UHGV virus genome: UHGV-0084588
Length of the DNA stretch: 64,000 nucleotides
Strand: one strand, 5' to 3'
DNA from: a virus
The notes beneath the pieces were generated by a model. That model saw only the letters and a program-made list of their open reading frames with translations, was not told the origin of the DNA and searched no databases. Every line of letters starts with the position of its first letter. Positions within the stretch are counted from its first letter, which is position 1. Positions 1 through 19,429 of this stretch are shown piece by piece. A program made the position numbers and the translations under genes.

Positions 1-3000
1 TTTGTCCGTCTTGCGAATAAAGGAAAACTTGACCGGAGCGTTGTTTAAGTTCACCATTAAAAGCTGTGGGTGAGAGATTAATGGCGTTACTGGCCACTTT
101 TTCCCTGAACGTCATCATTCTCGCTTCCGAACTAACGAACCTTATGACCCCGTTGGTTATAGTCGGTTTTACCTGAAAGAAGTAAAAAGCAAACTTATTT
201 ACCCCGTCAGTGTCTTTATAGATAAGACTCACTATCGCGATACAAAGCGGACCACCAGACATCGTTTGACCAAGCACCCAAAAGGACAAACTGTAGTTGT
301 TCTTTTTGGTCTTAGCTACGCTAATCCGCTCATAGGCGTTGCCGTTAGAAGCCCCAGAGAACTGGCTGGACTGAACAATATTAGTCAACTTCGCCCATTC
401 TGCCGCATCGATAGACAACCGATCACTAGCCACCGTAGTGGTACCGTAAACAACTTTACATGGTTTACTTTCAGCACCGATAAAGTAAGCCCCATCTAGT
501 AGACCTTTCGGTATGTCTGGCGTAACAACCAGCGGTATATTTGTCAATACGCCGTATTCGTTCGCTTTTTTTTCAACACGGCGGGATGTTGGTCCAAACC
601 CGCCGTATCCAGGATAACCATAAGTCGTATCTTTATCATATTCGGCTTCAATGAAATAAGCCGTTTTTTGATGTTTAAGCCATACTTTGTTTGTTCCTGG
701 GAAGAACAATGGGAAGGTCATAGACGGTTTCCACACCGAACCCACCACAGGGTTTATCCGATTTTCAAACGTAGATTGCCCCTCATACCCCGCACTCAAC
801 TTAACATAGTCCAGATAACTAACTCCTTCTGGGAGTTTCTGGTAATGGAGAGATGGTGCAAGTTGTTTTTCTGTCGAACAGCAGCAAGAATAAACCATAT
901 CACCGACACAGATTCTATTGTCGGCCATATAGCCAGAACTTCGAGTAGCCCATTTCCATTTCAGCTCTATTTTTGTTCCGTCTTTTAAGTAGCAACCTGT
1001 AGTATCGATTTTGATTGGGAAGATGTTAGTTGTCTCTAACCCAACCTCCCCGGTTAATAGGTCGAGACGATAAGCACCATTCCATGGCCCGAATGTGGTA
1101 CCTTTCGTTGAAGAAAAACCAAGACAAACGCCAGACACGCCGACGGTTAACAAGTGACCGTCCTTAACAACGGGCGTTATCCATCTTGACACCCCTCTAG
1201 TTAATTGTAAATTCACTGTCCACAACGCTTTGCCTTCCGCAGTGAAGTAGGCAAGACGCTTCGTATTCGGATTATCTACATCGAACGCGCCAGGTTCAAC
1301 CAAATCGGCACACTTACCGATTTTTCGTGTAGAGCTTAAATCAACCTGTTCAAACCGATCGGTTTTATTAAGCCGCAATAACCCAACACGGAACATAGGT
1401 TGCGGAGTATCCTTAATGTAGTCCACCAGACTATTGTTTTTCAGATCGGCCATTAGCATCGTACGCAAAACATAAACGCCATTATCGGCTATGACCACAC
1501 GATCCATGAACATATTCGGCACAAATTCCCATGTTGTTTCTGAAACAAATTCTGAGAAAGTTACCAACCTGACATCGGTATGTTTGGTGTAATCCATTGA
1601 ACCGTTCAGTTTAACTAAATAATAATTATCGTCGCTGCCCTTCGCTATAAATGCTTCGGTACCAGTAACGGTAATTTCTTTTAGTTCCACCCCCGGATAA
1701 TTCGTCTCTAACCCTTTCGGCTTATAACGGAAAGTTGTTTTGTAAATTTCACCGAGACTTTTGTCGTTTTTTAACCCAGCAACAGCGTAATAAATACCCT
1801 CAGTTCCCGGAAGGGCAGATTTAGAACTAATTAAAGCATAAAGCTTACCTTGTTGTACCCCTATAACCATCTGGAGCGCATCCATGTTTTTACCATAACC
1901 TTCGTAATTACCCATCGACAAGATCGGCAATATCGAATTGTTGGTATATTTGCTCCCGGCCGTTGTCCATGCGGGCAAGAGGGTATTCAGTTTATCAGAG
2001 ACCTTCTTAATCTCTTTTGCGAACAACCACCCTTGGCGTGATGTGACGGCTTTATCATTCGTGGTATCAATCGCATCCCACAGCTGTAAGATACCGTCCA
2101 CTGTTGCGCTACCGATCGGGACATTATCCAAATCAGCGGTAGTGTGCGTGTGTACCTTCAAACTTTTATTTTTCAGCACGTTCGCTAATGCTTTTGTTAC
2201 CGGTTTAGCGATGGGTGTGGTGTTATTCATCTTATCGATACCGAAATCGGCCTTCGTTAAGGTTAACACCATGTTGTCGCCTGTCTTAACAAACCCTTTA
2301 CCGTTAACCGTGTAGTCGTCGTCAACGTACAAGTCCAACCGGTCTTTTAATTCGGTCACAGCCTTTTGGGAAATAGCAGTGCCTAGCGCTACAGAGGTTG
2401 CGATATTCGTAATCGAAAACACCCCATAAACCGACTCGGTTGCTGTGGGAATATTCGCATTCAACGTTAGTGGGTTAGACTGCTTCGCTGTACCGTACGG
2501 TTTTACGGTGTCAGACGATTTGAAATAGGCGTTCGCTTCAAGTAACGTTACAGACGTCAGGTACATGTTCACCATTTCTGGTGTAACCAAATACACAGAG
2601 TTATAGACCGGTGCTAATACATCCTGTTCTGACCCAGAATGTACCCAAAGCGTATTCAGCCCCGCACTAAACTCAACCGCCAAACCGGATTCGTTGTTGT
2701 CTTGGTCTGCTTTAATCACTAACGGTTGTGGTGAAGTAATTAACCACTTATCACCACGGATGCTGATGATGTGTCCACCCGGTGTTTTAAACGTTAGTTC
2801 ATTACCGTTCGTGGTACCCCAACGACCGTAAACGGTACCGAGGGCTTCGCCCATTAACTGTTCAACGTCTGATTGCTCAATGCCCGCCGAACCCATCAGC
2901 GTAGCCAGTTGGTCAATTGTCAACCCAAACGCTTTTGTAGCGTCAACAGCACGTCCTAAAACCGGAAGGGCCCCAACGTCATTGGTCGTATACTGGTGAG

Positions 3001-3601
3001 CGTTAGGATTAAGGTGGTGTTGGTATAGTTCTTCATCGAAAATCTTTTTACCGTTCTCGTAAATCAGGTTAGTGACTTCGGTGAAGGCCGCATCTAACTC
3101 TGTTGAACGCTGAATGATTTTCTTGCGGATATCGTTCAACGCTTTAACGACCTCGTCCCTCAGAATCGCTTCTTCTAAGTTAGCAGGGGGGTCGATTGGT
3201 TGAATAACCGGCGCGTACGCCATTAACTCCGACCAGTCCACGTTACGTGGGTCTTTCAGGTCAGTACGAACTAAGAACTTCCCGATTTCAGATTGCGGTA
3301 CACGGTATTGACGTGCTACCCCTAAAATCTCATATTCGATTTCTGTTGCAGTAAGCAACATAAACCCGCCATAAATCTGATCTTGTTCAGCTTCTGCGAG
3401 TTCTTTAAAGTAATAGCCTAAATAGTAGTCCAACCCCTCAATCAGAGTACGACGTCCGTTAGGCGCGGTATCGTCGGCTACTGTGAGTTTTAATCCGATA
3501 CGATAAAAAGGTCCTTCAGGCGGAATGACCACGTTAAATCGGTTAGGGTACGTCGTTGTGCTTAGCGTACCGTTAAACTGCGCCGCGTCTTCTCTCGGCA
3601 T
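1..3601 (-). CDS. Large tail fiber-like / tail structural protein, C-terminus cut by window start (>=1200 aa)
   Basis: Manual reverse-strand translation from ATG at 3601..3599 (GGAG about 8 nt upstream) stays open to position 1; absent from the ORF track only because the stop lies outside the window. Contains KVHTHT motif; no enzymatic motif recognised. Confidence 0.55.
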   Translation of the reverse strand, partial: MPREDAAQFNGTLSTTTYPNRFNVVIPPEGPFYRIGLKLTVADDTAPNGRRTLIEGLDYYLGYYFKELAEAEQDQIYGGFMLLTATEIEYEILGVARQYRVPQSEIGKFLVRTDLKDPRNVDWSELMAYAPVIQPIDPPANLEEAILRDEVVKALNDIRKKIIQRSTELDAAFTEVTNLIYENGKKIFDEELYQHHLNPNAHQYTTNDVGALPVLGRAVDATKAFGLTIDQLATLMGSAGIEQSDVEQLMGEALGTVYGRWGTTNGNELTFKTPGGHIISIRGDKWLITSPQPLVIKADQDNNESGLAVEFSAGLNTLWVHSGSEQDVLAPVYNSVYLVTPEMVNMYLTSVTLLEANAYFKSSDTVKPYGTAKQSNPLTLNANIPTATESVYGVFSITNIATSVALGTAISQKAVTELKDRLDLYVDDDYTVNGKGFVKTGDNMVLTLTKADFGIDKMNNTTPIAKPVTKALANVLKNKSLKVHTHTTADLDNVPIGSATVDGILQLWDAIDTTNDKAVTSRQGWLFAKEIKKVSDKLNTLLPAWTTAGSKYTNNSILPILSMGNYEGYGKNMDALQMVIGVQQGKLYALISSKSALPGTEGIYYAVAGLKNDKSLGEIYKTTFRYKPKGLETNYPGVELKEITVTGTEAFIAKGSDDNYYLVKLNGSMDYTKHTDVRLVTFSEFVSETTWEFVPNMFMDRVVIADNGVYVLRTMLMADLKNNSLVDYIKDTPQPMFRVGLLRLNKTDRFEQVDLSSTRKIGKCADLVEPGAFDVDNPNTKRLAYFTAEGKALWTVNLQLTRGVSRWITPVVKDGHLLTVGVSGVCLGFSSTKGTTFGPWNGAYRLDLLTGEVGLETTNIFPIKIDTTGCYLKDGTKIELKWKWATRSSGYMADNRICVGDMVYSCCCSTEKQLAPSLHYQKLPEGVSYLDYVKLSAGYEGQSTFENRINPVVGSVWKPSMTFPLFFPGTNKVWLKHQKTAYFIEAEYDKDTTYGYPGYGGFGPTSRRVEKKANEYGVLTNIPLVVTPDIPKGLLDGAYFIGAESKPCKVVYGTTTVASDRLSIDAAEWAKLTNIVQSSQFSGASNGNAYERISVAKTKKNNYSLSFWVLGQTMSGGPLCIAIVSLIYKDTDGVNKFAFYFFQVKPTITNGVIRFVSSEARMMTFREKVASNAINLSPTAFNGELKQRSGQVFLYSQDGQ

Positions 3602-3634
3602 CGTAAAGACTCCTACTTTTAAATAAAATGGATA

Positions 3635-3657
3635 CCCCTCCCCATTACAGGGAGGGG
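3635..3657 (-). terminator. Intrinsic terminator downstream of the 1393-aa fiber gene
   Basis: CCCCTCCC/GGGAGGGG 8-bp stem, loop CATTACA, U-rich tract on the minus strand. Confidence 0.5.
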
Positions 3658-3695
3658 TTACCTACGGACACACAACTGCCCGCAGGCAGTCTGTC

Positions 3696-6600
3696 CTAAG
3701 TACGATCCCCTAACTGCTTCCCGTTAAGTTCTCGTTTCAGTACAGCCAGAATCCACTTCCACGCTTTACTCGTGATGTGGTACGGGTTGCGTTTCTCCAT
3801 TAAGAACTGACTTTCGCCGCTACGGAGTTCGAAACTCTGTGCATTGAGTTGATCTTGACGGACGCTTTTCTCGTCAGTGACATCTAACGAACAAGCGAAG
3901 TTAAGTTCATAACCTTCTGGATTATTGCCGGGTGGTTCTAAGACAATATAAATGTCCTGACCTACACGTAAGTCCTTTGGCGTAAGAGTAATCGCTTTAC
4001 CTGTATCAGAGGCGGTCGAAAGCGCAAAAGATACGCTATCAATAGCCGATACATACGGGTCCTTCCCGGCATCACCGATAATCACTTTACCCGGCCAGTT
4101 AGACTTCACCGTCCCGGCCACTTTTGCAACGCGATACTGCTGTTTATCAGCACCTTGTGCAAAGCGTAAAATGAGTTTATGGCGATAACGACTCGCAGCA
4201 GCTTTAGTCGTGCTCCACTCATTATTCCAGGAAGCGTTGAGTTCACCTTTCTTGGCCATCAAGGCACCACGAGACAGCTTACGGTCAAAGAACTGCGCAG
4301 GCAACTGACCGTCATGGGAAACAGCAACACTTCCCTGTCCGGTTGGCAGCGCGATGCTTTCTGTAACGCGGTATTTTTGACTAACCTCATAAGTCGCAGG
4401 GTCAATCACAGACTGACTAAAATCAACGTCTTTGGTATCAGCCAAATACCCAACGGACGAATCCAGATACGATTCGAACAACGAACGTAAGTAATGGTAC
4501 TTATCAATGTCGACGTTACTCGTAGCCGGATCAATCAGCGCGTGACTAATCGTTACACGGCATTTCGCAGACAGTTCTTTAAACGACAATCCCACACCGT
4601 CGCCAGTGAAATAATCCACTAAATCGAACGGGAATTGAATCTCCAGCTGTCGATGTTTAACTGTTGTCGTTCCGAACTGTGAGAACGTCAGTGCTAAACG
4701 TAATACCCGACTGTTTACGTTGTAACGATAGCGAATCATGCCACGAGGTGCATGGTTTGCAGAAATTTTATCTCGACCGGCACCCCAACCTATCAAGTCG
4801 AGCGTCGCCGCGTTGGTTTCCTCACCGTTGAACAACACATCCTTAAACGTTGCGGCCACTGCCGTTTCCCCAGACTCCTCCATCACTAACGGAATATCCG
4901 TAACAGCAGAATCTGAACGGGAACCAATCCCCAACTTACAGGTTTTGGTAGTTAGGTCAATGCGCAGATAGCGACGTTTAACGCTGCTACCTTGCGTTGA
5001 CGTGCATAGAACCAAATCCGGCGCAGCAGCAAGGGCTTGCGTTCCACCAACATCGTCAACATCGAACGCAAACGAGCCTTCGAATGTCGGTGCGTTGTTT
5101 TCTTTCGGGTTAAATGGTGTAAACCAACAATACGGCGTAGCACCTTCAGGTATCACAACGTATTGAAGACTCGACTTCACGTTTTGGTTGTGTGCGTAGG
5201 TATAAAGGCCGCGACTGACAAGATGGAAAACATCCCCTGTAGCGGTTGCTAACGGTTTCCTAAAGATACACGCTCTTGGTTCAGCAATAGCACGGTTTAA
5301 TAACGGCAGCCGTGGGTTATCCGTTAACGCCCAGTCAACAGCGCTGAGTCCGTGTGCCTTACGAGTGCTGATGTGCTCGCTAACTTCCGCACTTTTCCCG
5401 AAATCAAACGTGGTTTCAAACCCCACAGTTTTATTCGCGTAAGACTGACCAGGAACGATATCAACATATCCGATATAACCGCGCTCTGGGTCAACGGCAA
5501 TACTCTGAATCGGTTCAGCACGCGAATACAGAGAGCCTGTGAGCATGTTAACGTATAAATAGTGACGAACCCCTACGTGCGTTGTAACAAACTCCTGGAG
5601 AAGCTCTACGCGCGTTTCAGGACCACTGAAATAAACGGGGTAATCACCATCGTAAACTTCGAACTGTACCGCTGCGGATTTAGTCGTGTCGCTACACTCG
5701 GCTTTAACCGCCACTGTGTAATTTTCAACGTCTGCTGACGTTTCATACACCGCGACGAGTGGAGACTCGCCTGAAGCGGCCTGGATACCGTTAATGTAAA
5801 CCGTAACCTGACCACCCCCAGCAGCATAAACCCAGAGCTTCGGTTGGTATGCTTTTACACGCGTTTTTGCCAATACAGTAATAACTGACTGGTCACCCAT
5901 CTGTGTAGCAGTCTTACCTACCGGGACAGACTGGAACCCCATCAATGGCGGTTCTTCAATACCCGTCCAGTTGATCCCCGTACCGTTACTCACCTTACCC
6001 GTAGCCCAAGTCAGCTCAAGTTGGTTATTCGGTGAGAACCAGTTAAACATCGGGGTGGTTTGCAGGTCAATCGCACCGGTAACGGTACTGTCACCTTTCG
6101 TGCCGTCCAGCAAATAGAAATATTTCAAATCCTGAACGGAGATTGCCGTACCCTGGCTATTAAATCGCCAGTCTGCGCCTTTTACAGCAGCGAAATCCGT
6201 GACTGTTCCTTCTTTCGCATTTGCAATTGCCGCAGCGACCACACTTAAACGTGCCGAAAGCTCTTTTAAGATGTTCGGTACCACTGCACGGTTTTCAACC
6301 AAACCGTTCTGGTTAGTTGCATAACGACCAATACCGTAAACAGATTGAGAAGCTTTATAAATGCCTAACTCCGACCAATCGTGATGATGGCCTACATCTG
6401 CTAGACCGCTAACCGCCTTAGTTAACTCGGTTGACAACGGTTTGTCAAGGTCTGCGGTGTTATCCGCTTGCCCTAACCCCAGGTCAGCTTTCGTGATTGT
6501 CCTGGAGCCGTCATTCATTGGCTTACCGTTAATCATGGTCGTTTTAGCCACATACCCTGATAGGTCGGTCGAATAAGGTGTTAATGACGCTGGCGTTGCT

Positions 6601-7877
6601 GCAACCCCAACCGTTTCTGTACCTTTACCAGTTTTAAGCTTAACAACACCTTTTTCAGCGGTTGTCGCTTTCGTCGGGTCGATAGTACCCACGATAGGAT
6701 CGGTCCGAGAGCCTTTACCGGTGAAGCTAATCCCATTACGGCCTTCGATGTACACCTTCGAGTCATCAGGGTCACCGCCGCCGCTCCCGCCAGCATCAGG
6801 ATCTTGTTGGTATTCCATCAACGCCGTGGTAGTCAGTAACGGGTTACCATTCAGGGTGAGTTTGTTCATCCCTAAAGCATCGCCGGTTGACTCGATACGT
6901 AAGGTGTTTTTACCAGCACGCCAGTTAATGTAACGTCCTGCACCCGTTCCCTCCAGATGCCCTACCGCCAACACCACAGAACCGTTGGATTTTAACGTAA
7001 AGCCATCATTCGCAAAAATGATTTCTGACTCACCGTTTTTTGAGCGGAATTGTGCACGGTTTCCTGACACCGTACAGTTAAACACACCCCGTACTTCTGA
7101 AGAAATCCAGTGGGAGATATACGTGTCAATAACTGACTGTGGTAAACGAAACGCTTTCAGTTCATCCGTCAGTGCTTTCAACTTTAACCCGTACGCCATA
7201 AAGGTGTCGGGTGTTTTCAAGTTAACAGGATGTGCGCTAATCTGTGCAGAAGTAGTTTGGTGCGGGTTGGTTTCCGCGATGTGTGCCGGGTAGTTAAATG
7301 CTTCGATTTCTTTACCCAGAGCGGTGACTAACGCTTTAACTTCGGCTAATTTATCTTTAATTAGTTGGTTAGCGTCGTCGGTTTTCAATTCAACATCGTG
7401 GACCGCTGACGCTAAATATTTTTTGTTCAGCAAATCCGCCCAGGACGTTGCCGCAGGCGTAGCCGGGTATAACGACGGTCTGCCTTCTAATAACAGCCAA
7501 TCAGCGCTGACTGGGTTATTCAAATATTTCACCAGCTCATCGAGAATGTCAACAAACGGGTCGTAGAACGTACCACCGAGCATTTGTCCTTCAAAGGTTA
7601 CGATGCCCTTGATGGATGGGTTGATAAGGTGTACCCCACAATACACGTTGGCTGCTACCGAGTCATCCAGTTCTGTCAGTTGGTATTGCAGTTCGTAGTC
7701 CACCCCACGACTCAGTGGGGTGGTTGAACCTGGTTGTCTGACGACTAAATCTTCAAAGAACGGGCGATGGTCTAAAATCACCACCCGATCGTTGTTGTTT
7801 TCTGACCCGATGATACGCTCCTCTAAGAAGTGATTCTCGGTTTTCGTCCCCCGAGGATCGTAAGGATACGCTTTCAT
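3696..7877 (-). CDS. Tail fiber-like protein (about 1393 aa)
   Basis: Track ORF 3696..7880; the first M is TTG, ATG is at 7877 with AAGGAG upstream. Gly/Ser/Thr-rich, GGSGGGDPDD linker, HHH motif (VGHHHDW). Lies 13 nt downstream of the 1440-aa gene, so probably co-transcribed. Confidence 0.6.
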   Translation of the reverse strand: MKAYPYDPRGTKTENHFLEERIIGSENNNDRVVILDHRPFFEDLVVRQPGSTTPLSRGVDYELQYQLTELDDSVAANVYCGVHLINPSIKGIVTFEGQMLGGTFYDPFVDILDELVKYLNNPVSADWLLLEGRPSLYPATPAATSWADLLNKKYLASAVHDVELKTDDANQLIKDKLAEVKALVTALGKEIEAFNYPAHIAETNPHQTTSAQISAHPVNLKTPDTFMAYGLKLKALTDELKAFRLPQSVIDTYISHWISSEVRGVFNCTVSGNRAQFRSKNGESEIIFANDGFTLKSNGSVVLAVGHLEGTGAGRYINWRAGKNTLRIESTGDALGMNKLTLNGNPLLTTTALMEYQQDPDAGGSGGGDPDDSKVYIEGRNGISFTGKGSRTDPIVGTIDPTKATTAEKGVVKLKTGKGTETVGVAATPASLTPYSTDLSGYVAKTTMINGKPMNDGSRTITKADLGLGQADNTADLDKPLSTELTKAVSGLADVGHHHDWSELGIYKASQSVYGIGRYATNQNGLVENRAVVPNILKELSARLSVVAAAIANAKEGTVTDFAAVKGADWRFNSQGTAISVQDLKYFYLLDGTKGDSTVTGAIDLQTTPMFNWFSPNNQLELTWATGKVSNGTGINWTGIEEPPLMGFQSVPVGKTATQMGDQSVITVLAKTRVKAYQPKLWVYAAGGGQVTVYINGIQAASGESPLVAVYETSADVENYTVAVKAECSDTTKSAAVQFEVYDGDYPVYFSGPETRVELLQEFVTTHVGVRHYLYVNMLTGSLYSRAEPIQSIAVDPERGYIGYVDIVPGQSYANKTVGFETTFDFGKSAEVSEHISTRKAHGLSAVDWALTDNPRLPLLNRAIAEPRACIFRKPLATATGDVFHLVSRGLYTYAHNQNVKSSLQYVVIPEGATPYCWFTPFNPKENNAPTFEGSFAFDVDDVGGTQALAAAPDLVLCTSTQGSSVKRRYLRIDLTTKTCKLGIGSRSDSAVTDIPLVMEESGETAVAATFKDVLFNGEETNAATLDLIGWGAGRDKISANHAPRGMIRYRYNVNSRVLRLALTFSQFGTTTVKHRQLEIQFPFDLVDYFTGDGVGLSFKELSAKCRVTISHALIDPATSNVDIDKYHYLRSLFESYLDSSVGYLADTKDVDFSQSVIDPATYEVSQKYRVTESIALPTGQGSVAVSHDGQLPAQFFDRKLSRGALMAKKGELNASWNNEWSTTKAAASRYRHKLILRFAQGADKQQYRVAKVAGTVKSNWPGKVIIGDAGKDPYVSAIDSVSFALSTASDTGKAITLTPKDLRVGQDIYIVLEPPGNNPEGYELNFACSLDVTDEKSVRQDQLNAQSFELRSGESQFLMEKRNPYHITSKAWKWILAVLKRELNGKQLGDRT

Positions 7878-7890
7878 CAAAAAATTCTCC

Positions 7891-10800
7891 TTAATCGCGA
7901 ATGATTACCGCCTGCACTTTATTGTTGGTGTCGATAAACGACATTACGCGCTCCTTGTTAAGATAAGGAGGTATCGGTAACGCAGCGTAATCCGCCAGGC
8001 TGTTATTAAATTCAGTTGCCACTAACGCATTAAGCGTTTCGGGGTCTGAGCTGACACCGGCCAATTCCATGACGCGTACTCGATTTAATGAGGAATAGTT
8101 GCTAATATAGTCCAACAACGTACCGTAGACTTTATTCGCAGTTGCGCTGTCTGCTGTAGAGCGGATGTTGGCACGAACCTCATCCTCATAAAGTCCCCCT
8201 AAACCGTAGTAAATAGGGGTATACGGATCATTAACAATAGGTTCGATATTGAACCCGGTTAAACGGTCGACTAATGGGATTTTCTGCGTAGTTCCCCCTG
8301 CTGCCGTACAGCTTACGTATTTATCTGTCGTGGATAAAAACACCACGATAGTATACACAGTGCCAGCTAAAGTCAGCGATGCATTAAACGTTATTGCGTT
8401 GTTTGCACCACGGGTGTGGGTAAACGTTACGTCAGGTTGTAATGAACTCCACGGTGCAGCTGTAACACGCTTCGTTGGTGTGAAACCTACCACTACCGAT
8501 TTCCCGCTACCGAAGTTCAAACCGAACCCTGCGTAACAATATTCACCGTTACTGTCAGTTAAACGATAACCGCGAGTGATGAGTAATGACAACCGCATAA
8601 ACTCGCCGTCGGTGTTCTTCCAACAACCTAAAACAGTTTCTAACACTGTTCCGGTTTTTGCGTTGCTTTCTGTTTCCCAACTTACCCGCATTCCTGCGTT
8701 TTTGAAAGTCGGGAATAAGTTGTGAATAAAACCATGAAGGTTATCACTTACCCCTTTCGCATCGAAAACCCACTTTGATGCGAGCTGGTCGTATTTCACC
8801 CCGTCTAAGGCTCTATACTGTCCACCGACGACATAACGCCAATCTGCTTCACCACGTACTACTGCCTGGAGTCCCGAAGCCCAGCAGGGCGCACCTACCG
8901 TTAAGTTAGCTAACCCAAGCACTGCACGTGTCGTGGAGCGGTGAATATGCGCGTTATCGTCAGCAGCGTGATCTTTCAGTTCACGGAAATCGTCCAGCCG
9001 TGTGACGTTACGCATCTCTGTAACGAACACTTCAGAAAGGTCATTGACGCCGATTAATCCCACACGCGTCATGGTATCCGTTTCAGCCTGACTGTAGCTG
9101 TCGTGAATAATGTACTTCGCTTTGTTGTCAACAATATCAACAAAAATCCCCGCGTAGATTTCTGTATTCAACTTCGGAAAACGTTCACTGACGTTAATCG
9201 TCGTCAACGGCACGGTGTATGTTTCGCCACCGATAAAATACGTTGATGCTGGAAGTGTAACCAGTATTTTGTCTTTGACCGTAACATCAATTAAGTCGTT
9301 ACCAGACTTACCAAAACGTATAATGTCGAGACGTGCCTCCGAGTCAACACCCCCGACAGCACTTTCCAATTTTTCAATCTGGGTAGTCTGCGCCATTACC
9401 ACACTGCCATCGAGTGCTAAAGTCGCGTCGTCCACATCCAGACCAAATTTAATCAAGCCACGTTTCGCGGTGGTTGCGTTCCCGGTACCAAATGCGGTAA
9501 ATGGGTGGTGGTGTACTTTAGGCGAATATTTATCTAACTCCGCCTGCTGTGCTGTGGAGATCGGCAAATCGACATCGGGTGTATTCGCAACGTTACCCAA
9601 ACCAAAGGTAATTTTGTCGATAGTAACTGAGCTGGTAAGTTGCATGTCGTTAATGTACGATTTAGCTGCAACTAGTTTACCGGTAAACTCAGCGTCCAGT
9701 TTTTCAATCAATGCGGGGGTTGCTGCGAGATTTTCAGCCGTACCGAATTCGTCCGTTAACTGCCAACACGCTAACGTAGTAACGTCTTCGGCAACCGGAA
9801 GAATAAACGTTGCTACGAATGGCGATGCTTTAATCCCACTACCGGTAAGTTCCACCGTAGCTGTAGATGCACCGTAGAATAATCCCGTACCACCTGCAGT
9901 ATTGCCCGGCAAATACGGCGCTACCGTGGTGGGGTCTAAGAGCTTCTTACCACGCCACAGTAATCCTCGGTCATCGGGATATAGCACAAGCTGGTTGTCG
10001 CCCGCTTGCAACGTTACCGGGTTGTTACCCACGTTAACATCAGTAGAACCTTGGCCGATGAACTTAATGGATTTCGGGTCAACGACAAACTGGGCACCTA
10101 AACGGGTCCCGTCAACGACATCGGGCGCTTTCTTAATGGTAACCGTGTTACCTTTATTCCCCGAGCTAATAGTGACGTTGTCAGCAACATTACCGATCAA
10201 TGATTTAAAGTGGTGGCTATTCTCCAATGCTTCTAGTGCAGCGTCCATGTTAGTGAAGTTAACACGTGCACTATATGTCTTGCCGTTTATGGTAATAACG
10301 ACATCAAACACGTTCCCTGTGCGTTTCAGTTGAAAACGCAGCGTAAAATCCCCATCCGGTATTGCTGGATTAGGAGCTTGGGAAAGATACTGAACTTCCG
10401 GTGTGGGATTCGAAAAACCGTTCAGTTCCAACTTAACGCCGACTTTACCCGCAGAAATTTCACCTGTAAGCTGGATAAATTTTCCAGAGTTAGTACCAGG
10501 TTTCTGATAGAAACGTAGGCTAACCGTACCGACGGCTTCATTACCAGACGCTGTTTTACGTCCGGTAACAATAAAGTCAATATCTTGCAGGTTAGCAGGT
10601 ACCGCATTAAAAGAAGTGGTGAATCCACTCTTCGTTCCTGTGTAACGAAGCGCACCGTGATACCTGTGACCATTACTAACGTAGCTTTCGCTAAAACGAG
10701 GACTCACGTATTTCGACATTGACACCGGGTCAACTTCCGTCGTGAACGAAGTAAAACCGGGCAGCGTTCCAATAGTTCCGTTAGCCGTTTTCGTAGCTGA

Positions 10801-12213
10801 CGTGCGTAATAGTTTCTTTTGTGCTGTCAACGTCGCTTGTGTTGGATACTTAGCATTAACATAGTCCGTTAACTGCGGCTTCGTTTTTCCGTAAGCTAAT
10901 GCTGCATCCGACGCAATGCCGTTCAACTCTAACGCACGGATCGGACCCCACGTATCTGTGTGTGGGTTGTCCTTACGTGTAACGTGTTCGTGCGCAGGCG
11001 CATTACGATACAGCTGCTCAACTAACTGATGATACTTAACTATTAACTGGTAAACATCGTTATCGACGTCGGGCTCCGGCGCACCGGGTAAAGAACGAAT
11101 TTGAACATAATCGTTTTCAGCCGCATACCAGTTCAGGTTAATGTTCGTTTTAGACTTCAACCATTTGGCTACATTCGTTTTCGAATACCCTGCCGAGAAC
11201 TCATCAGGCGGCGTATCGACGTTGAATGTATAATCCATGGTCTGTTTATTTGTTTTTACTACGATTACGTAAACGCCGTTTCCGGGCTGACGGGTTACAC
11301 TAAAATCGATATCGTTTTTTAACTCATCGTCAGTTAAACCGTTGATTAAAGTATAATCGTAGTTTGTTGAACCACTGCCAATAGCGACAGTTAAGACCAG
11401 TGAGATTTTGCGCTGTTTTAGCTGTAACCGTAGAATGCTTGCACCGCCGTTGGCATAACAGAGCATCCAATCGATCTGCTCGTTCGGATTCAACTTTGTC
11501 ATGTCTGGCAGAATAGCAGGAATTCTGTGTTTCACCGACAGGGAATAGTCGTTAAAGGTTGTCGCGTTATAACTCAGGCTATAACGGTGGCGAGCTGTGT
11601 TGTAGGTGAAACCGCCTTTATTATCGTACGCGGCATACTGCTCGGAAGTGATAACCTTGCTATTAGCACGATATTCCAAATCCAGTGTGTTGCGTGCGAT
11701 TGGGTTAAGCCGACTCACGACTTCCCCTAACGAATCGCCTACCCCAGCAATGGCCTGCATTAGCTCCAGTTCACCTTTCCAATTCTCCCAATCGAACTGG
11801 ATATCGACCGGTGGAAAGTAAACGTCTCCGATAACGGTGTCCCACTGACACGCGGAAGGGTATTTACCTTTATTAAGCTCGCGCTCTGCGGTAATCTGCT
11901 CTTGGGTTGCTTCACCGCAACCAACGGCATGGTAATCTACAGTAAAGTTCGATTTGTATTTGTCATTAACAATCCAAATCATCCCGTGAATGAGATAGGC
12001 TGTGCGCAACATACCAGTCTCGTACGGGTGTGTAATAACGTAATCGTCGCCTAAGGTCAGTATTTTGCCGCCGCTCTTGACCACCAGGGATGTGGTGAAA
12101 AAAGGGGCGTGGGCAGGTACCAACATTCGGTATTTCGTACCAATGACGGCGACCGCTTCACCGGTTATTTTATTCCCCGGTTTTTTGAAGTGTGGGTCTA
12201 AGACGACAGCCAT
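7891..12213 (-). CDS. Tail fiber-like protein (1440 aa)
   Basis: Track ORF with ATG at 12213 preceded by TAGGAG; very large Thr/Gly/Asn-rich protein with VHHH motif; second of three tandem giant genes. Confidence 0.6.
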   Translation of the reverse strand: MAVVLDPHFKKPGNKITGEAVAVIGTKYRMLVPAHAPFFTTSLVVKSGGKILTLGDDYVITHPYETGMLRTAYLIHGMIWIVNDKYKSNFTVDYHAVGCGEATQEQITAERELNKGKYPSACQWDTVIGDVYFPPVDIQFDWENWKGELELMQAIAGVGDSLGEVVSRLNPIARNTLDLEYRANSKVITSEQYAAYDNKGGFTYNTARHRYSLSYNATTFNDYSLSVKHRIPAILPDMTKLNPNEQIDWMLCYANGGASILRLQLKQRKISLVLTVAIGSGSTNYDYTLINGLTDDELKNDIDFSVTRQPGNGVYVIVVKTNKQTMDYTFNVDTPPDEFSAGYSKTNVAKWLKSKTNINLNWYAAENDYVQIRSLPGAPEPDVDNDVYQLIVKYHQLVEQLYRNAPAHEHVTRKDNPHTDTWGPIRALELNGIASDAALAYGKTKPQLTDYVNAKYPTQATLTAQKKLLRTSATKTANGTIGTLPGFTSFTTEVDPVSMSKYVSPRFSESYVSNGHRYHGALRYTGTKSGFTTSFNAVPANLQDIDFIVTGRKTASGNEAVGTVSLRFYQKPGTNSGKFIQLTGEISAGKVGVKLELNGFSNPTPEVQYLSQAPNPAIPDGDFTLRFQLKRTGNVFDVVITINGKTYSARVNFTNMDAALEALENSHHFKSLIGNVADNVTISSGNKGNTVTIKKAPDVVDGTRLGAQFVVDPKSIKFIGQGSTDVNVGNNPVTLQAGDNQLVLYPDDRGLLWRGKKLLDPTTVAPYLPGNTAGGTGLFYGASTATVELTGSGIKASPFVATFILPVAEDVTTLACWQLTDEFGTAENLAATPALIEKLDAEFTGKLVAAKSYINDMQLTSSVTIDKITFGLGNVANTPDVDLPISTAQQAELDKYSPKVHHHPFTAFGTGNATTAKRGLIKFGLDVDDATLALDGSVVMAQTTQIEKLESAVGGVDSEARLDIIRFGKSGNDLIDVTVKDKILVTLPASTYFIGGETYTVPLTTINVSERFPKLNTEIYAGIFVDIVDNKAKYIIHDSYSQAETDTMTRVGLIGVNDLSEVFVTEMRNVTRLDDFRELKDHAADDNAHIHRSTTRAVLGLANLTVGAPCWASGLQAVVRGEADWRYVVGGQYRALDGVKYDQLASKWVFDAKGVSDNLHGFIHNLFPTFKNAGMRVSWETESNAKTGTVLETVLGCWKNTDGEFMRLSLLITRGYRLTDSNGEYCYAGFGLNFGSGKSVVVGFTPTKRVTAAPWSSLQPDVTFTHTRGANNAITFNASLTLAGTVYTIVVFLSTTDKYVSCTAAGGTTQKIPLVDRLTGFNIEPIVNDPYTPIYYGLGGLYEDEVRANIRSTADSATANKVYGTLLDYISNYSSLNRVRVMELAGVSSDPETLNALVATEFNNSLADYAALPIPPYLNKERVMSFIDTNNKVQAVIIRD

Positions 12214-12282: not shown

Positions 12283-13545
12283 GTGACTACTGCTTATCAA
12301 GTGCGGCCCGACAGCGCTTTTGGCTTCTCTCGAGAGTCCCGTACCTGGGGAGCCATCGATGTCACGCAACCCTTAACTACGTTGTGTTCAGACTACCACA
12401 CCTTTGAGATCGGTTTAAGTGCACTTGGTAAAGACTATACGTTAATCAGTCAATACCATCTTGCTGAACTACAAAACCGAACAGACACTTTACAAGATTG
12501 GTTAAATGAAAAGGCCGGAAACGTCATTCCCACTCTAAAAGCCGGATTGCCGAAACTGGAATTCAGTTGGGCACATTACCAATCAATTAATGCCGATGTA
12601 CCTGTCGAAACATATCTGTGTCCACCAGGGTACCACCACAGTCAAGATTTCAGCCTAGACGATGCTGATGACGTTGTCGTCGTTTGTGAGGACAAGTGGA
12701 AAGACAAATACCGTAATAGTGTGCTGTACAACATTAACGGTCAATGGGTACCGCACCAGACGGATACCGTAGGTGTGCGATTGCCTGGGGCCGGTAAAAT
12801 CGTACGGAGAGCATGTACGCCAGATATTGGCTGTATGGTTTTTGGTCAGCTAGGGAATGTTAAAACCTATCCAATCGCCAACCTTACGCTAAACAAGCTC
12901 GACACTACACGCGACTATTACTCCACGTTAATGATATCGCTGCCTGAGTCTATTACGGGGAAAACCGTGGGTTTCGTCATAGGCGGATTGTTACGTTGGT
13001 TGCCCCCGGACGGTTATTTCTCTGACCGTGCGATCATGATTTCTTTACCGAATTTTGATCTTGCACGGACCGTTCTGGAAACCCGCCGTTATTACGACTG
13101 GGATAGCATCGGTGTAGGGGATTTATCATCGCCTACCAACGTTCAACGTATTCGTAACCCTGAAACACTGAAGGCGCTTTTACTCCACGAATCCTCTTTT
13201 ATCTTTACGGTAGATAATCCGTATTTAGAAGAAGAAGTTGTGGGTGTTTCGCATAACGCCGTTTGGGGACGCTGTTACCTCAAGGACCCCAACGATCCTG
13301 ATTCTGAAAAACCATTAGGGTACTTAAATAATCGATTTGGTAAGACGGTAGGTTATTGGCCTACGTGGGAGGAAGGTGAGTGGGTATTTAACACTACCGA
13401 ATTCGACAGTCAAAACTACGTCTTTCGTGAAGCCCGGTGGTATAATCAGAAGAAGATTAACGATGCTCAAGCAATCGTTGGTCCATTCGGTCCCTGGGAA
13501 AAAGTGTATTTAGAAATGCATCGCTTTAAAGCACGAAAAAAATAA
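12283..13545 (+). CDS. Hypothetical protein (420 aa), divergent from the fiber genes
   Basis: Track ORF with GTG start, GAGGA about 10 nt upstream; ends at a bidirectional terminator; no motif recognised. Confidence 0.45.
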   Translation: MTTAYQVRPDSAFGFSRESRTWGAIDVTQPLTTLCSDYHTFEIGLSALGKDYTLISQYHLAELQNRTDTLQDWLNEKAGNVIPTLKAGLPKLEFSWAHYQSINADVPVETYLCPPGYHHSQDFSLDDADDVVVVCEDKWKDKYRNSVLYNINGQWVPHQTDTVGVRLPGAGKIVRRACTPDIGCMVFGQLGNVKTYPIANLTLNKLDTTRDYYSTLMISLPESITGKTVGFVIGGLLRWLPPDGYFSDRAIMISLPNFDLARTVLETRRYYDWDSIGVGDLSSPTNVQRIRNPETLKALLLHESSFIFTVDNPYLEEEVVGVSHNAVWGRCYLKDPNDPDSEKPLGYLNNRFGKTVGYWPTWEEGEWVFNTTEFDSQNYVFREARWYNQKKINDAQAIVGPFGPWEKVYLEMHRFKARKK

Positions 13546-13551: not shown

Positions 13552-13594
13552 CTCCTACCCTCTAAGAGGGTAGGAGTAGCACGTTTTTTTTTTT
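13552..13594. terminator. Bidirectional intrinsic terminator between convergent genes
   Basis: CTCCTACCCTC-TAAG-AGGGTAGGAG stem-loop with A-run upstream and T11 downstream. Confidence 0.7.
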
Positions 13595-13597: not shown

Positions 13598-13825
13598 TTA
13601 GTCTTTTTTGTAGACAATCGCGTTACCGTGCAGTTTGTTGTTGCCGGAAATACCGATAACTTTGAATGCGTCGCCGCCAATTTTTTCGGCTTCAGCAGCC
13701 AGTTTACCAGTTACATGATCAACGGTATCGCCGAAAGCGCTGACGTTACCGATTTTCTTAAACTCTTCTGGAATATGCTCAGCAGAAGAGAACTCTTTAA
13801 TAGACATAACAGCTCTCCATTTCAA
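13598..13825 (-). CDS. DUF1471 (YdgH/BhsA/McbA family) domain protein, no signal peptide
   Basis: 75 aa; KKIGNVSAFGDTVDHVTGKLAAEAEKIGGDAFKVIGISGNNKLHGNAIVYK matches the BhsA-type domain (recalled E. coli BhsA: ...GTISANAG...LAQKADEMGAKSFRITSVTGPNTLHGTAVIYK). GGAG RBS before the ATG; no N-terminal hydrophobic leader. Confidence 0.6.
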   Translation of the reverse strand: MKWRAVMSIKEFSSAEHIPEEFKKIGNVSAFGDTVDHVTGKLAAEAEKIGGDAFKVIGISGNNKLHGNAIVYKKD

Positions 13826-13875: not shown

Positions 13876-13895
13876 CTCCTCCCCGTAGGGAGGAG
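13876..13895. other. GC-rich stem-loop without T-tract
   Basis: CTCCTCCC-CGTA-GGGAGGAG in the intergenic region between two minus-strand genes. Confidence 0.35.
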
Positions 13896-14013: not shown

Positions 14014-14979
14014 TTATTGCGGAGGTGATGTCGGGCCATGTTTACCTTGGTGAATGTGAACGCTAAAGGTAATACCAGAAATAACGGCATCTTTAACCGT
14101 AAAGACACCGACGCCTTTGCCAGTACCGCCGTATTTGAAGTTCTTAGCGATTTCCAGATTACCGGTGAACATCGCTTCATTCCCTTCTTGTTTAAAGTTC
14201 GGCGTTTTAAATGTTGTCGAACTCCCTGCTTCCGTTAACCAGGTTTGTGTTTTAAACGTAACGGATTTCGCTGCTTCCGTATTGCGAACTTCGCATTTTT
14301 CATTAATTGTTTTCGTTTCCAGGTTAATAGAACGCTTTGAATAAATGAACGCATCTTCTTTGTTGATGTTCACTTTTGAAAGCATCGCATTCTCAAAACC
14401 TAAATCGTCTTCCACCGAGTTAATGTAATACTTATTCCCTTTGTGGTCAACACACTGCCACGTGCCATTTGCATTATCAAACTGAAATAACCACGCCGCT
14501 TTCTCGCCGTTCACCATACTTGTTCTTAGCGTGATATGTTTGTCAATCGTCGAGATATTCAACACATACGCATTGGACAGGTCATCCGCCATCTGGTTTT
14601 CAGGGTCAGCAGACCACGCGTAAACCGCATCCTCTAATCGCTTAACGTTAGCGAAGTTCAGATCAATCCAAAAATAAATATCGGTTTTCCCCAAACGTAA
14701 CAAGATAACGTAATCTTCTCGTTTAACGTCAGGGGAATTAATTCGGTTGGAGTTAAACTTCCACCACTTTGCTGTTATCGTGTTACCCGTCTTAATGGTT
14801 AGGTTATCTGTTGCACCAGACGTTTCATGCGTCTTTTCAGTTGCTGAAGAAACAGATTGCACCACGGTAGGGTTAGCAAAGTTGGTTTCAATTGGTATCA
14901 CTTTTACCCGATCTGTACCACGGGGTTTGTCTTCCGCGACGATACCAATTGAGAAAAAATCAACACTGGATTTCTCCAT
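14014..14979 (-). CDS. Hypothetical protein (321 aa), possibly virion-associated
   Basis: Track ORF; Thr/Asn/Lys-rich, beta-rich-looking composition; Gly-rich C-terminus (GGTGKGVGVF); no enzymatic motif. Confidence 0.5.
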   Translation of the reverse strand: MEKSSVDFFSIGIVAEDKPRGTDRVKVIPIETNFANPTVVQSVSSATEKTHETSGATDNLTIKTGNTITAKWWKFNSNRINSPDVKREDYVILLRLGKTDIYFWIDLNFANVKRLEDAVYAWSADPENQMADDLSNAYVLNISTIDKHITLRTSMVNGEKAAWLFQFDNANGTWQCVDHKGNKYYINSVEDDLGFENAMLSKVNINKEDAFIYSKRSINLETKTINEKCEVRNTEAAKSVTFKTQTWLTEAGSSTTFKTPNFKQEGNEAMFTGNLEIAKNFKYGGTGKGVGVFTVKDAVISGITFSVHIHQGKHGPTSPPQ

Positions 14980-15008
14980 CGGGACGTTCCTTAGATCGGA
15001 ATTGAATT

Positions 15009-15030
15009 CAGATATATATTACTTAAGTGA
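15009..15030 (+). promoter_or_regulatory. Promoter-like motif CAGATATATATTACTTAAGTGA
   Basis: 21 of 22 positions identical to the motif at 19359..19380 (24-nt TTCAGATATATATTACTTA(A/G)GTGA block shared); heads a 420-bp region without ORFs. Confidence 0.4.
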
Positions 15031-15286
15031 ATAGGGACTGAAGTACCAGTTCAGTCCCTACGGACACGTTTCATTCGAAACGGATTGATTAAACCATTTG
15101 GGGAGACAGATCATGTCTACTAAAAAAAGAAAGTCTCAATGAGCTGCTCAAACGTCTTAAAGACTACACTCCATTTAGTACCTTCCGATAACAGGTACTA
15201 AAATTTTACAGTCTGCCCCTTTATTCTGCTACTCGGGATACCGGTAGGGGGTAGGGGGCATTATGTATACGGATATAAATAGCGGA

Positions 15287-15303
15287 GGTATACGTAGTAT
15301 ACC
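15287..15303. promoter_or_regulatory. Perfect 17-bp palindrome GGTATAC-GTA-GTATACC (candidate operator)
   Basis: 7-3-7 inverted repeat about 100 nt upstream of the first paralog gene; an extra GTATAC copy at 15265..15270. Confidence 0.35.
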
Positions 15304-15398
15304 GACATACTCTTCCCAGAGGAACGTAGTGACTTCCTTATTCCTCTTCTGCAATCCATAATAATAGACTCCCCTTTATTGAGATTAGCGAGTAAATC

Positions 15399-16136
15399 AT
15401 GAGAGAATTATTAGACGATATCTTTACTAACACCAGTTTAGAACTTTCTTCTACCGTTGTTAACGAACTATTAAAACAATCGCAACCTGCTAAGTTAATC
15501 GATGCTGGAACAATTAAACCTGAAGATTATCCAGACAGTGACGTTATCGACTGTATGATTGACGAATACGTGATAGGCAGTTACGCCAACCGCGTCTTCT
15601 TCGTTATTAATACCGAAACCAGTGTCATGTTAATCTATAAGTTGATCAGTGATGCCGAACTTGAAGTTGTGGCTGACCACATTCGTCTTCTTGCGAACAC
15701 GCCTACTAGTATCGATGATGTGCTTATTGGGAACGGTTGGGCTTTACCACCACTATTCTCTTACTTCCCTCTGTTTAGAAATGGGATAGGGTTACTCCGA
15801 AATGCAGAAAAGCTTCCCGATAACGTCGAGTTATCACTGCTTGGACCCGGCATCGATCTTTGTCCATTAGAAGACGAGGGCACGCTATATGGTTTGCGCA
15901 TCTATGTTTCTGTGTTAAAGGGTTACCGCGTTATTGAACTGATTGCATCCGACTTAGCAAAACAGATCCCAGATGTGGAAACGATTTCTAAAGCCACCCA
16001 CCTGGTTGAGATTAACTCAGACGATCCCTTATTGAAATATCACGAGAAAATTGATCTTCGTAAAATCGCCACGATGAGAGGGTGGAGTTGTGCTGAGATT
16101 ACGAAGGACTATCTGCTGTTAATTAAAACCGCGTAA
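15399..16136 (+). CDS. Hypothetical protein, member of tandem paralog family (C-terminal GW motif)
   Basis: 245 aa; C-terminus ...RGWSCAEITKDYLLLIKTA resembles the C-termini of the next three genes. Confidence 0.5.
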   Translation: MRELLDDIFTNTSLELSSTVVNELLKQSQPAKLIDAGTIKPEDYPDSDVIDCMIDEYVIGSYANRVFFVINTETSVMLIYKLISDAELEVVADHIRLLANTPTSIDDVLIGNGWALPPLFSYFPLFRNGIGLLRNAEKLPDNVELSLLGPGIDLCPLEDEGTLYGLRIYVSVLKGYRVIELIASDLAKQIPDVETISKATHLVEINSDDPLLKYHEKIDLRKIATMRGWSCAEITKDYLLLIKTA

Positions 16137-16166
16137 TTAAGAAAACCGAAAAAAGGAGAATATACC

Positions 16167-16721
16167 ATGTTTCAAACTGAACTGAAAAATGAAATTATCC
16201 AAACCCTTGAAAAAGGCGTAGGCGAACATTTCTTTGTCCGTCCTTATACCGTACTGACCAATACCATTATCCAGCCAGGTGCGATGATAGTAGGGGTAAG
16301 TGTACAAGCTGTAGAGGAAGCCCCGCTGCGTCGTAACATCACACGTAAAAACCATATTCCATTTAGAACGGGTTTTACAAATTACTTTCAGAGCTTACTG
16401 AAAGATAGCGTTTGGAAAACAGGCAGCTTCTTCCACGAAGGGAAGACTTCCACGCTGGTTTATAAAGAGAACACCAAGTATCTGGTTGATTTTCTCTTAG
16501 CGCGTCAATACGATTTCTTTCCTTCACCCACCGGTCTCACCCCAGACAATCCGAGTAAGCTGTTAAACCAAGACGAAGCTGAAGCACTGCGTGCACAACT
16601 GAGAAAAGAAGGTTGTGATGTCGATGACCATGAAACCTTAATCGGGGTTGCTAAAGCACACGGTTGGTATACCGTGCGTGTATTTGGGCGTCAGATGTTG
16701 TTCTTAGCTTATAACGTTTAA
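16167..16721 (+). CDS. Hypothetical protein, tandem paralog family member
   Basis: 184 aa; AAAGGAG RBS; C-terminus ...AHGWYTVRVFGRQMLFLAYNV. Confidence 0.55.
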   Translation: MFQTELKNEIIQTLEKGVGEHFFVRPYTVLTNTIIQPGAMIVGVSVQAVEEAPLRRNITRKNHIPFRTGFTNYFQSLLKDSVWKTGSFFHEGKTSTLVYKENTKYLVDFLLARQYDFFPSPTGLTPDNPSKLLNQDEAEALRAQLRKEGCDVDDHETLIGVAKAHGWYTVRVFGRQMLFLAYNV

Positions 16722-16732
16722 AGGATGGTATC

Positions 16733-17860: not shown

Positions 17861-17886
17861 TAAGTGAAACTACACTTTCTCTAACT

Positions 17887-17909
17887 GCCGCGCTTTAGTC
17901 GCGGCTTTT
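17887..17909 (+). terminator. Weak intrinsic terminator / attenuator
   Basis: GCCGCG-CTTTAGT-CGCGGC followed by TTTTG. Confidence 0.3.
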
Positions 17910-17928
17910 GTTAAGAAGGAAAAAAGAA

Positions 17929-18708
17929 ATGAAAATCCATTTAGACGACCTCTTTAAAACTGAACCGTACATGGTTAAAGGTTCGCTGGCTTCATTGTTG
18001 CTAGACGATAGATACCATCGAACGCTACAATTACAATCGGTAGAAACCGCGCCAACGGGAATTGAAGACGTGGGTCTTTACCAACGTATCACTCACACAC
18101 GTGGAGAATATCGTCGATATAAACCCGATACACTGACCGTTAAGCTTTGGCAAGTGGGCACAGGCAAGGTATTAAGTTATCGCGCCGTTGGTCTGTACCA
18201 CGTTGAACGTGCTTACACATGGTTAGAAGAAGTTAAAGAAATGGATTACGACCAGCTAAGCAAAAGACTTCGTGACCATAACGCCAGTTTACCGTTACGT
18301 AATTATTTCTCCACAGTTGAAAATAGTCGTTGTTTCGTTTCTCGCGAATCCATGATATTACCTGGAACTGACGTTCAGACGACGCTAAAAGACGTGGTTG
18401 TAAAGAAAGTCTTTCATGAGTCTGAACACGTTGGGTTTCGTATCTATTTAACCCACAAGAGACCATTTACCGTGATTCATGTTGTTACCGTACCCGAAGG
18501 ATCAGCAGTCTCTCGGGAACTTCCTGATGCTCGCGACCGTTGCCCTAATGAGCCGCTCTACTTAATGTCAGGAACAAAATCAACCGCGTTGATGTCTCGT
18601 TACAGCATGATAGATGTTGTTGACGCTGCTATGAAGCTAGGTTGGAAAGAAGTGCAGCAACACGGTAAACAGTTGCTGTTTATTGCCGATGTAAAACTTA
18701 ATTATTAG
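17929..18708 (+). CDS. Hypothetical protein, tandem paralog family member
   Basis: Track ORF 17908 starts at TTG; ATG at 17929 follows AAGGA; C-terminus ...LGWKEVQQHGKQLLFIADVKLNY. Confidence 0.55.
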   Translation: MKIHLDDLFKTEPYMVKGSLASLLLDDRYHRTLQLQSVETAPTGIEDVGLYQRITHTRGEYRRYKPDTLTVKLWQVGTGKVLSYRAVGLYHVERAYTWLEEVKEMDYDQLSKRLRDHNASLPLRNYFSTVENSRCFVSRESMILPGTDVQTTLKDVVVKKVFHESEHVGFRIYLTHKRPFTVIHVVTVPEGSAVSRELPDARDRCPNEPLYLMSGTKSTALMSRYSMIDVVDAAMKLGWKEVQQHGKQLLFIADVKLNY

Positions 18709-18720
18709 TGAGGTGGAACC

Positions 18721-19299: not shown

Positions 19300-19303
19300 C
19301 GTC

Positions 19304-19336: not shown

Positions 19337-19358
19337 TCGTCAACATTAAAAATAATTT

Positions 19359-19380: not shown

Positions 19381-19429
19381 GAGTTATGATTAACTCATTT
19401 ATACATTAACGCCTTAAAGGAGCAAAACA

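Follow-up and report, generated by a model that had tools for sequence, protein, structure and literature searches.

The window analysed here, a 64,000-nucleotide stretch of the virus genome UHGV-0084588, begins with three consecutive minus-strand genes, here called A, B and C, which fill positions 1–12213 (Table 1). We consider that the products of these genes are fibre proteins at the baseplate periphery of a jumbo phage related to Pseudomonas phage phiKZ, that they are modular, and that they probably carry a metal clamp of the form His-x-His (HxH) in a trimeric shaft; we assign this explanation as a whole a probability of about 0.72. According to the proposed model, a gp131-like N-terminal domain and a long helix would anchor each protein to the outer baseplate, and this anchor would, by analogy with phiKZ, lie under the gp130-like product of the adjacent gene, possibly bundled with helices of the other paralogs. 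A thin fibre shaft bearing the motifs H...NPH, A-x5-G and TKxDxGLGxxxNTxDxxKPxS...HxH would come next, and a distal module, wholly different from one protein of the trio to the next and expected to touch the host surface, would come last. The single HxH of each chain would most likely point to the three-fold axis of the trimeric shaft, where a single buried ion, Fe(II) or Zn(II), would be bound by six histidines, and this clamp would set the chain register at the junction of the conserved anchor with the exchangeable distal part.

Orthology and Gene Order

The coordinates of the open reading frames (ORFs) bear out the layout given in the original prediction, which was made from the sequence of the window and described three tandem minus-strand genes of at least 1200, 1393 and 1440 amino acids in 12 kb. 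At least 1200 amino acids of gene A lie inside the window; the full gene, of 1728 amino acids, occupies positions 14277–19463 of a 220,786-bp gut-metagenome scaffold (L009), which contains sequence identical to the reverse complement of window positions 1–12213. Gene B starts at an ATG, the TTG chosen by the ORF lister being one codon upstream, and its orthologs begin with MK(A/T)YPYDP. The spacing between C and B is only 13 nucleotides, and the gap between B and A is 97 nucleotides.

Judged by protein similarity and synteny, A, B and C are orthologs of gp168, gp169 and gp170 of Salmonella phage SPN3US. Similarity to GenBank phages at the DNA level is marginal, and tblastn finds collinear full-length matches (87–100% coverage, 41–54% identity) in Salmonella phages that resemble SPN3US and in jumbo phages of Erwinia. 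In BLASTP, A is 46% identical to gp168 (45–47% to the SPN3US and Asesino proteins) and B 48% identical to gp169, and C matches gp170 with 69% identity over residues 1–494 and 43% over residues 677–1440. Each protein matches a PHROG of its own with E = 0 (7449 for A, 8078 for B and 7557 for C). A profile search for homologs of C was saturated by near-identical SPN3US variants.

The gene order C, B, A is that of gp170, gp169, gp168 in SPN3US, and the neighbours are alike, namely a divergently transcribed gp171-like gene, a gene for a small DUF1471 protein and one for baseplate assembly. Strands, N-terminal module, fibre unit and HxH also agree. The differences are that the window proteins have at most ~55% amino-acid identity to their SPN3US counterparts, that C carries an extra module of ~200 amino acids (residues 497–704) relative to gp170, that the central ~800 amino acids of A are only 16–40% identical to gp168 and thus represent a different cassette, and that the window phage has a genome of ~220 kb ('Bapsvirus' type) versus ~240 kb. 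The trio is a known kind of apparatus, made of proteins which, by their matches, belong to known families and share at most ~55% identity with those of any deposited phage.

In SPN3US, gp168–170 were detected in purified virions at similar mid-to-low abundance and were grouped as one paralog family, 'C', with the label 'baseplate/tail fiber candidate' (PMC5694885); another study counted gp168 among the tail proteins and drew a comparison with phiKZ gp131 (PMC5105663). Matches to tail-fibre PHROGs over the motif region of the window proteins are weak but consistent. The fibre-type identity that had been proposed from the sequence is therefore upheld by the orthology with gp168–170, by the homology of the anchor to the phiKZ gp131 family and by generic fibre motifs.

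Table 1. Coordinates of the three genes, their parts and two adjoining genes in the window.
Feature	Positions	Strand	Description
Gene A	1–3601	−	SPN3US gp168 ortholog; ATG at 3601; runs off left edge; phrog_7449, E = 0
Gene A, parts	1–3601	−	gp131-like N-domain, helical stalk, fibre shaft, swapped central cassette
A, central cassette, from ~residue 540 to ~1300 (beyond window edge)	1–1984	−	Exchanged between otherwise near-identical genomes
A, fibre unit, residues 446–509	2075–2266	−	TKADFGIDKMNNTTPIAKPVT...KVHTHT...ATVDGILQL; HTH at 2144–2152
A, N-terminal anchor part	2912–3601	−	Equivalent of B residues 1–230
Gene B	3699–7877	−	1393 amino acids; SPN3US gp169 ortholog; phrog_8078, E = 0 over full length; 48% identity to gp169
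B, distal region, residues 563–1383	3729–6191	−	Predicted beta-sandwich chain, weakly lectin/carbohydrate-binding-module-like; AlphaFold2 pLDDT mostly 70–90
B, fibre unit, residues 460–521	6315–6500	−	TKADLGLGQADNTADLDKPLS...VGHHHDW...ASQSVYGIGRY; HHH at 6381–6389; N, D, K, H, H invariant
B, N-terminal part, residues 1–230	7188–7877	−	gp131-like anchor domain, helical stalk, H...NPH motif (hhalign, BLASTP, AlphaFold2)
Gene C	7894–12213	−	1440 amino acids; SPN3US gp170 ortholog; phrog_7557, E = 0
C, fibre unit, residues 863–922	9448–9627	−	DKITFGLGNVANTPDVDLPIS...KVHHHPF...ATTAKRGLIK; HHH at 9505–9513
C, inserted module, residues 497–704	10102–10725	−	Lineage-specific; absent in SPN3US and Erwinia-phage orthologs (alignment gaps; block identity 0–7%)
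C, optional module, residues 167–379	11077–11715	−	Inside helical stalk; absent in Erwinia phage Huxley, divergent in pEa_SNUABM_29 and Asesino
C, N-terminal anchor part	11719–12213	−	Second half of helix and NPH motif at C residues 383–443
gp130-like gene	12283–13545	+	420 amino acids; divergent; homolog of phiKZ gp130 and SPN3US gp171; phrog_3337; synteny
Baseplate assembly protein homolog (SPN3US gp173)	14014–14979	−	phrog_3216, E = 9e-114; RefSeq annotation of SPN3US ortholog

Relation of the N-Terminal Anchor to the phiKZ Peripheral Fibres

BLASTP against a small phiKZ database shows that the first ~140–160 amino acids of A, B, C and all their orthologs are collinear with phiKZ gp131 (E = 1.8e-9 for B, 5e-8 for C and 2.5e-4 for A). 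Profile comparison, which had been named as a check of the fibre assignment, gives a clear result: in hhalign, the N-terminal module (34 sequences) matches the N-termini of phiKZ gp131, gp133, gp134 and gp135 with a probability of 99.7% (E = 1.1e-26, 199 columns), and the match spans the helix and the 'H...NPH' motif. A search of the window ORFs with hmmsearch matched A, B and C only, so that the 64-kb window holds no further carrier of this module. AlphaFold2 was run on monomers of B, in two models, one of them N-terminal. The N-domain (residues 10–100) was predicted with a predicted local distance difference test (pLDDT) score of ~80, followed by helices at residues 102–120 and 146–201 with pLDDT 54–77. 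Foldseek found no match with E < 0.1 for the N-terminal model in a PDB copy in which phiKZ gp131 is represented by 4GBF only, without models of its N-domain.

The divergent gene beside C encodes a homolog of phiKZ gp130, the platform at which the fibres dock (BLASTP E = 1e-12, 22% identity over 410 amino acids) and of SPN3US gp171, an essential tail protein (PMC5105663); in the phiKZ gene map, gp130 likewise sits divergently beside gp131–135. In the 2026 cryo-electron microscopy atlas of phiKZ, each of the 12 peripheral fibre sites has six gp131-like N-domains and a bundle of six helices lying under gp130 (PMC13250141). On the basis of the N-module homology, the divergent gp130 homolog and the placement at fibre sites in phiKZ, the trio appears to be the SPN3US-clade version of the phiKZ peripheral-fibre module.

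In both phages, a homologous N-terminal anchor is followed by a helix, predicted in the window phage, and an NPH motif, and tandem paralogs adjoin the divergent gp130 homolog. The phiKZ proteins, however, have 457–771 amino acids versus 1393–1728 in the window phage, and they lack the long shaft bearing the NTxDxxKPxS...HxH unit, of which only gp132 shows a fragment, 'NPH...DIGLGN'. Two of the phiKZ paralogs, gp134 (GHMHAYW) and gp135 (PHGHEYW), have an HxH around residues 150–160, directly after the gp131-like N-domain, a position at which gp131 and the window proteins have none. By comparison of these positions, phiKZ may place a similar pair of histidines at a different point of the stalk.

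The same atlas models the fibre base as a hetero-hexamer of three gp131 with one gp133, one gp134 and one gp135 (PMC13250141). From this it also follows that the branched adsorption apparatus or broad host range that had been suggested on account of several large fibres cannot be deduced from their number, since the phiKZ paralogs co-assemble at each of the 12 sites. It is possible, though on balance we doubt it, that A, B and C do the same, forming through their N-domains and helices one hetero-oligomeric complex per baseplate site in which the HxH site is perhaps built from different chains. The homology of the N-module to the phiKZ bases speaks for such a complex, as do the normalised spectral abundances of SPN3US gp168, gp169 and gp170 (1.08, 1.41 and 1.00, with 0.93 for the portal; PMC5694885), the short spacing between C and B, which suits coupled expression, and the almost equal distance of HxH from the N-terminus in A (residue 484) and B (residue 497). 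In C, however, HxH lies at residue 901, owing to two inserted modules, and the distal regions are unrelated and of very different lengths, so that one can hardly picture a shared shaft past the base; moreover, the model of the phiKZ fibre consists of AlphaFold predictions fitted at low resolution.

Position and Conservation of the HxH Motif

Each protein has one histidine cluster where the original prediction had noted it: KVHTHT in A (residues 482–487, window positions 2141–2158), HHH within VGHHHDW in B (residues 497–499) and HHH within KVHHHPF in C (residues 901–903). An HxH as such is not unusual, the chance of at least one in shuffled sequences being P = 0.09 for A, 0.34 for B and 0.36 for C. 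What exceeds chance is the position and the conservation of the motif rather than its mere presence. All three HxH lie ~20 amino acids past a common NTxDxxKPxS motif, within a unit of the form TKxDxGLGxxxNTxDxxKPxS-(~15 amino acids)-HxH that is followed by the A-x5-G motif. H496 and H498 are invariant among the B orthologs (n = 17, 25–60% identity). In 57 representatives of the family, clustered at 50% identity, a strict pattern finds HxH in 41 of 64 matched units, and inspection by eye finds it in nearly all the remaining ones; the exceptions are the truncated P0216, the multi-repeat P0188 and the atypical P0158.

The suggestion of a conserved histidine motif therefore stands, whereas its description as His-rich does not: only the first and third histidines are conserved, and the residue between them is variable (T, K, R, G, S, H and others, mostly T or K), which makes the motif HxH and not a His-rich patch. 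Two further HxH in C, AHEH at residue 408 and AHIH at residue 1089, both lie within fibre motifs of the 'N(P/A)H' type.

A and B share ~500 amino acids at 24% identity, and the similarity ends at the histidine cluster; the same shared elements are present in C, spread out there by inserted modules. HxH sits in the proximal shaft, on the border between the shared anchor module and the unrelated distal modules, and not at the fibre tip.

The unit is widespread. A HMMER scan with B residues 194–1393 against 1.84 billion representatives matched 1322 proteins, which beyond ~20 full-length orthologs are mostly long proteins that repeat the fibre unit 3 to 19 times (up to 20 matched stretches per protein in phmmer); some of them match the Pfam family PTR, PF12789. 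These multi-repeat proteins have in common with the window proteins a ~38-amino-acid unit including HxH (HxH-TKxDVGLGNVDNTSDxxKPIS), and they differ in that the window proteins carry one copy of the unit and begin with a gp131-like N-domain, which the multi-repeat proteins lack.

Possible Metal Binding

In known trimeric fibres and spikes, three HxH on the trimer axis form an octahedral six-histidine Fe(II) site, as in T4 gp37, the R1/R2 pyocin fibres and the P2 and phi92 spikes (PMC6116203; also PMC11705849), and the equivalent site of T4 gp12 holds Zn (PMC6116203). The window proteins resemble T4 gp37 (needle, 2XGF), gp12, the R1/R2 pyocin fibres, P2 gpV and the phi92 spikes in having an H-x-H with a variable middle residue in an elongated fibre protein, and the conservation pattern fits such axial sites. 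By analogy with T4 gp37 and the R-pyocins, it is therefore plausible that HxH serves as a metal clamp within the shaft. The closest positional analogy is provided by the R1/R2 pyocin fibres, which have a single buried Fe site midway along the shaft (PMC6116203), whereas T4 gp37 has seven sites in its distal needle versus one in the proximal shaft here. The window proteins differ from all these fibres in having no detectable sequence homology to them, and trimer geometry and metal are putative here; with no homology found to gp37 or gp12, the link to T4 is an analogy. Consequently, only part of the proposed gp37-like metal motif at fibre tips is retained: HxH sites for Fe or Zn are well documented in fibres and spikes, but the motif of the window proteins is not at a receptor-binding tip.

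That the motif is not a metal site at all, and instead senses pH, contacts an assembly chaperone or simply belongs to a conserved beta-strand of the repeat unit, is in our judgement unlikely. Among the 664 NT..KP motifs found in 150 representatives, only 100 are followed by HxH, so that the unit can evidently fold without it, and the AlphaFold2 models are uninformative at the motif. On the other hand, the two histidines are invariant and the middle residue is free, which matches the axial six-histidine sites (PMC6116203), and in multi-repeat proteins HxH, where present, recurs with each unit, like the seven sites of the T4 gp37 needle.

Module Exchange and Distal Regions

Comparison among relatives had been proposed for signs of mosaicism, and these were found in A and C. 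Nine genomes of this phage group were compared by identity per 100 amino acids. A is 92–99% identical over residues 1–500 and 71–92% over residues 1300–1728, whereas residues 600–1300 fall into two cassette types with 19–44% identity to each other. The window genome and a Shigella flexneri isolate carry cassette type 1, and five Salmonella and two E. coli isolates carry type 2; in one of the type-2 genomes, B and C are almost identical to those of the window. The 5' breakpoint of the cassette is near residues 540–560, ~55 amino acids past HxH. In C, two modules are inserted in some lineages (Table 1), and B is conserved throughout (90–99%), its most variable stretch being residues 1201–1300. 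Exchange of the kind seen in A and C is typical of fibre proteins that interact with the host. A would be the best candidate for the host-range determinant, since genomes that are otherwise near-identical have swapped its central cassette.

Structure prediction, also put forward as a check, answered in part: the N-domain of B and its distal chain of beta-sandwiches were predicted with confidence, but not the region of the motif. Foldseek matches of the distal region of B in the PDB were legume lectins, ancillary glycosidase domains of the galactose-binding-like type and a tail chain of Klebsiella phage Kp7 (7y22_Y), and the top match in BFVD was the ortholog from Erwinia phage Kwan, annotated 'putative tail fiber protein'. 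Neither a Pfam scan of the three proteins nor Foldseek of the B model detected an enzymatic or recognised receptor-binding domain; in the Pfam scan, B and C matched no family at E ≤ 0.1 and A none of relevance.

The seven-bladed propeller found at the C-terminus of gp131 (4GBF) was sought in the distal parts of A, B and C and rejected (hhalign probability ≤ 0.2%), the model of B consisting of beta-sandwiches. Kinship among the distal regions of A, B and C was likewise rejected by hhalign, except for one module of ~130 amino acids common to C (about residues 966–1097) and the C-terminal part of A (probability 97%). An internal duplication in C (residues 160–400 versus 480–700) was not supported.

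The conservation of B over its whole length in relatives from different host genera raises the question of whether the proteins are mainly a structural scaffold of an enlarged outer baseplate, a periphery of the 'star lobe' type, in which HxH would be a feature of folding or stability apart from adsorption. The caution of the SPN3US authors, who went no further than 'baseplate/tail fiber candidate' (PMC5694885), and the result of the domain searches would agree with this. We regard it as improbable, since fibre motifs abound in the shaft, whose unit is common to many long fibre-like proteins, the homologous N-domains of phiKZ are located at fibre attachment sites (PMC13250141), the cassette exchange in A and the module insertion in C are typical of host-interacting proteins, and the BFVD ortholog is annotated as a tail fibre.

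Several observations weigh against our explanation of the trio as peripheral fibres with a metal clamp. Presence in the virion tail is known, by mass spectrometry, for the SPN3US orthologs only. The swapped cassette of A is central and not C-terminal, which is unusual for a receptor-binding tip, and the lectin-like Foldseek matches of B are all generic and of low TM-score. As for the motif, pLDDT is below 50 around HxH in both monomer models, and the Pfam PTR model (PF12789) matches neither A nor B nor C. Sequence searches of the PDB by phmmer and hmmsearch with each protein, a 64-column profile of the unit and a 28-sequence profile of B found no fibre match at E ≤ 1 for the proteins and E ≤ 10 for the unit; a marginal match (E = 0.29) is the AP22 fibre 4MTM over the A-x5-G motif. 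Finally, by analogy with phiKZ, single-copy paralogs such as those of the modelled hetero-hexamer would complicate a homotrimeric six-histidine site.

It is quite improbable that the single HxH is a metal 'registration clamp' at the junction of anchor and cassette built from the A, B and C chains of a hetero-oligomeric fibre; if true, this would be a metal-templated heteromeric fibre with three unrelated receptor-binding modules on one stalk.

Neighbouring Genes and Phage Group

GC-rich hairpins with stems of 8–11 bp lie in intergenic gaps at 3634–3658 (the gap between B and A), 13552–13576 and 13876–13895 (minus strand). They may act as attenuators or terminators and so adjust the ratio of A, B and C; a terminator scan gave generic hairpins only, and a promoter scan gave fewer promoter-like sites than expected from shuffled sequences.

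Between the gp130-like gene and the baseplate-assembly gene, positions 13598–13807 (minus strand) encode a 69-amino-acid protein of the DUF1471/YdgH_BhsA-like type (PF07338). Domains of this family typically occur in stress and biofilm proteins of enterobacteria. The SPN3US ortholog of the small protein, gp172 (7 kDa), was detected in virions (PMC5694885).

At the other end of the window, a gene of at least 1955 amino acids (58132–63999, minus strand) has an SLT lytic transglycosylase domain and a PHROG match labelled 'tail fiber protein'. Its size and its domain suggest a protein of the tape-measure or tail-associated lysin type, like SPN3US gp239 and phiKZ gp181, so that the PHROG label is probably misleading. 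Two radical-SAM genes lie just outside the window, a few genes downstream of A (L009, 22760–24182), and the pair is likewise found in SPN3US (gp102, gp103) and in the E. coli 'plasmid' copy mentioned below.

With its ~220 kb, the phage belongs to the 'Bapsvirus' type, which forms a sister group of the SPN3US/Seoulvirus phages; the proposed genus 'Bapsvirus' and 'bacterial assembly-associated phage sequences' have already been published (PMC12768965). Many isolate assemblies of Salmonella, E. coli and Shigella contain relatives of the ~220-kb phage as complete contigs, and this group is also found in gut metagenomes. SPN3US-type genomes of ~240 kb are likewise common in isolate assemblies. Two relatives are deposited as 'plasmids', from E. 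coli (NZ_CP173450.1, 221,873 bp, circular) and Enterobacter ludwigii (NZ_CP134650.1, 222,441 bp).

Implications

Taken together, these results provide a function and a domain map for three of the largest 'hypothetical' genes in this group of jumbo phages and tie them to the peripheral-fibre architecture of phiKZ, which was only recently resolved by cryo-electron microscopy. The HxH motif adds one more family to the fibres with a probable buried metal site, without a new principle. The central cassette of A and the inserted modules of C are the variable parts of the apparatus and are obvious targets for the prediction or engineering of host range.

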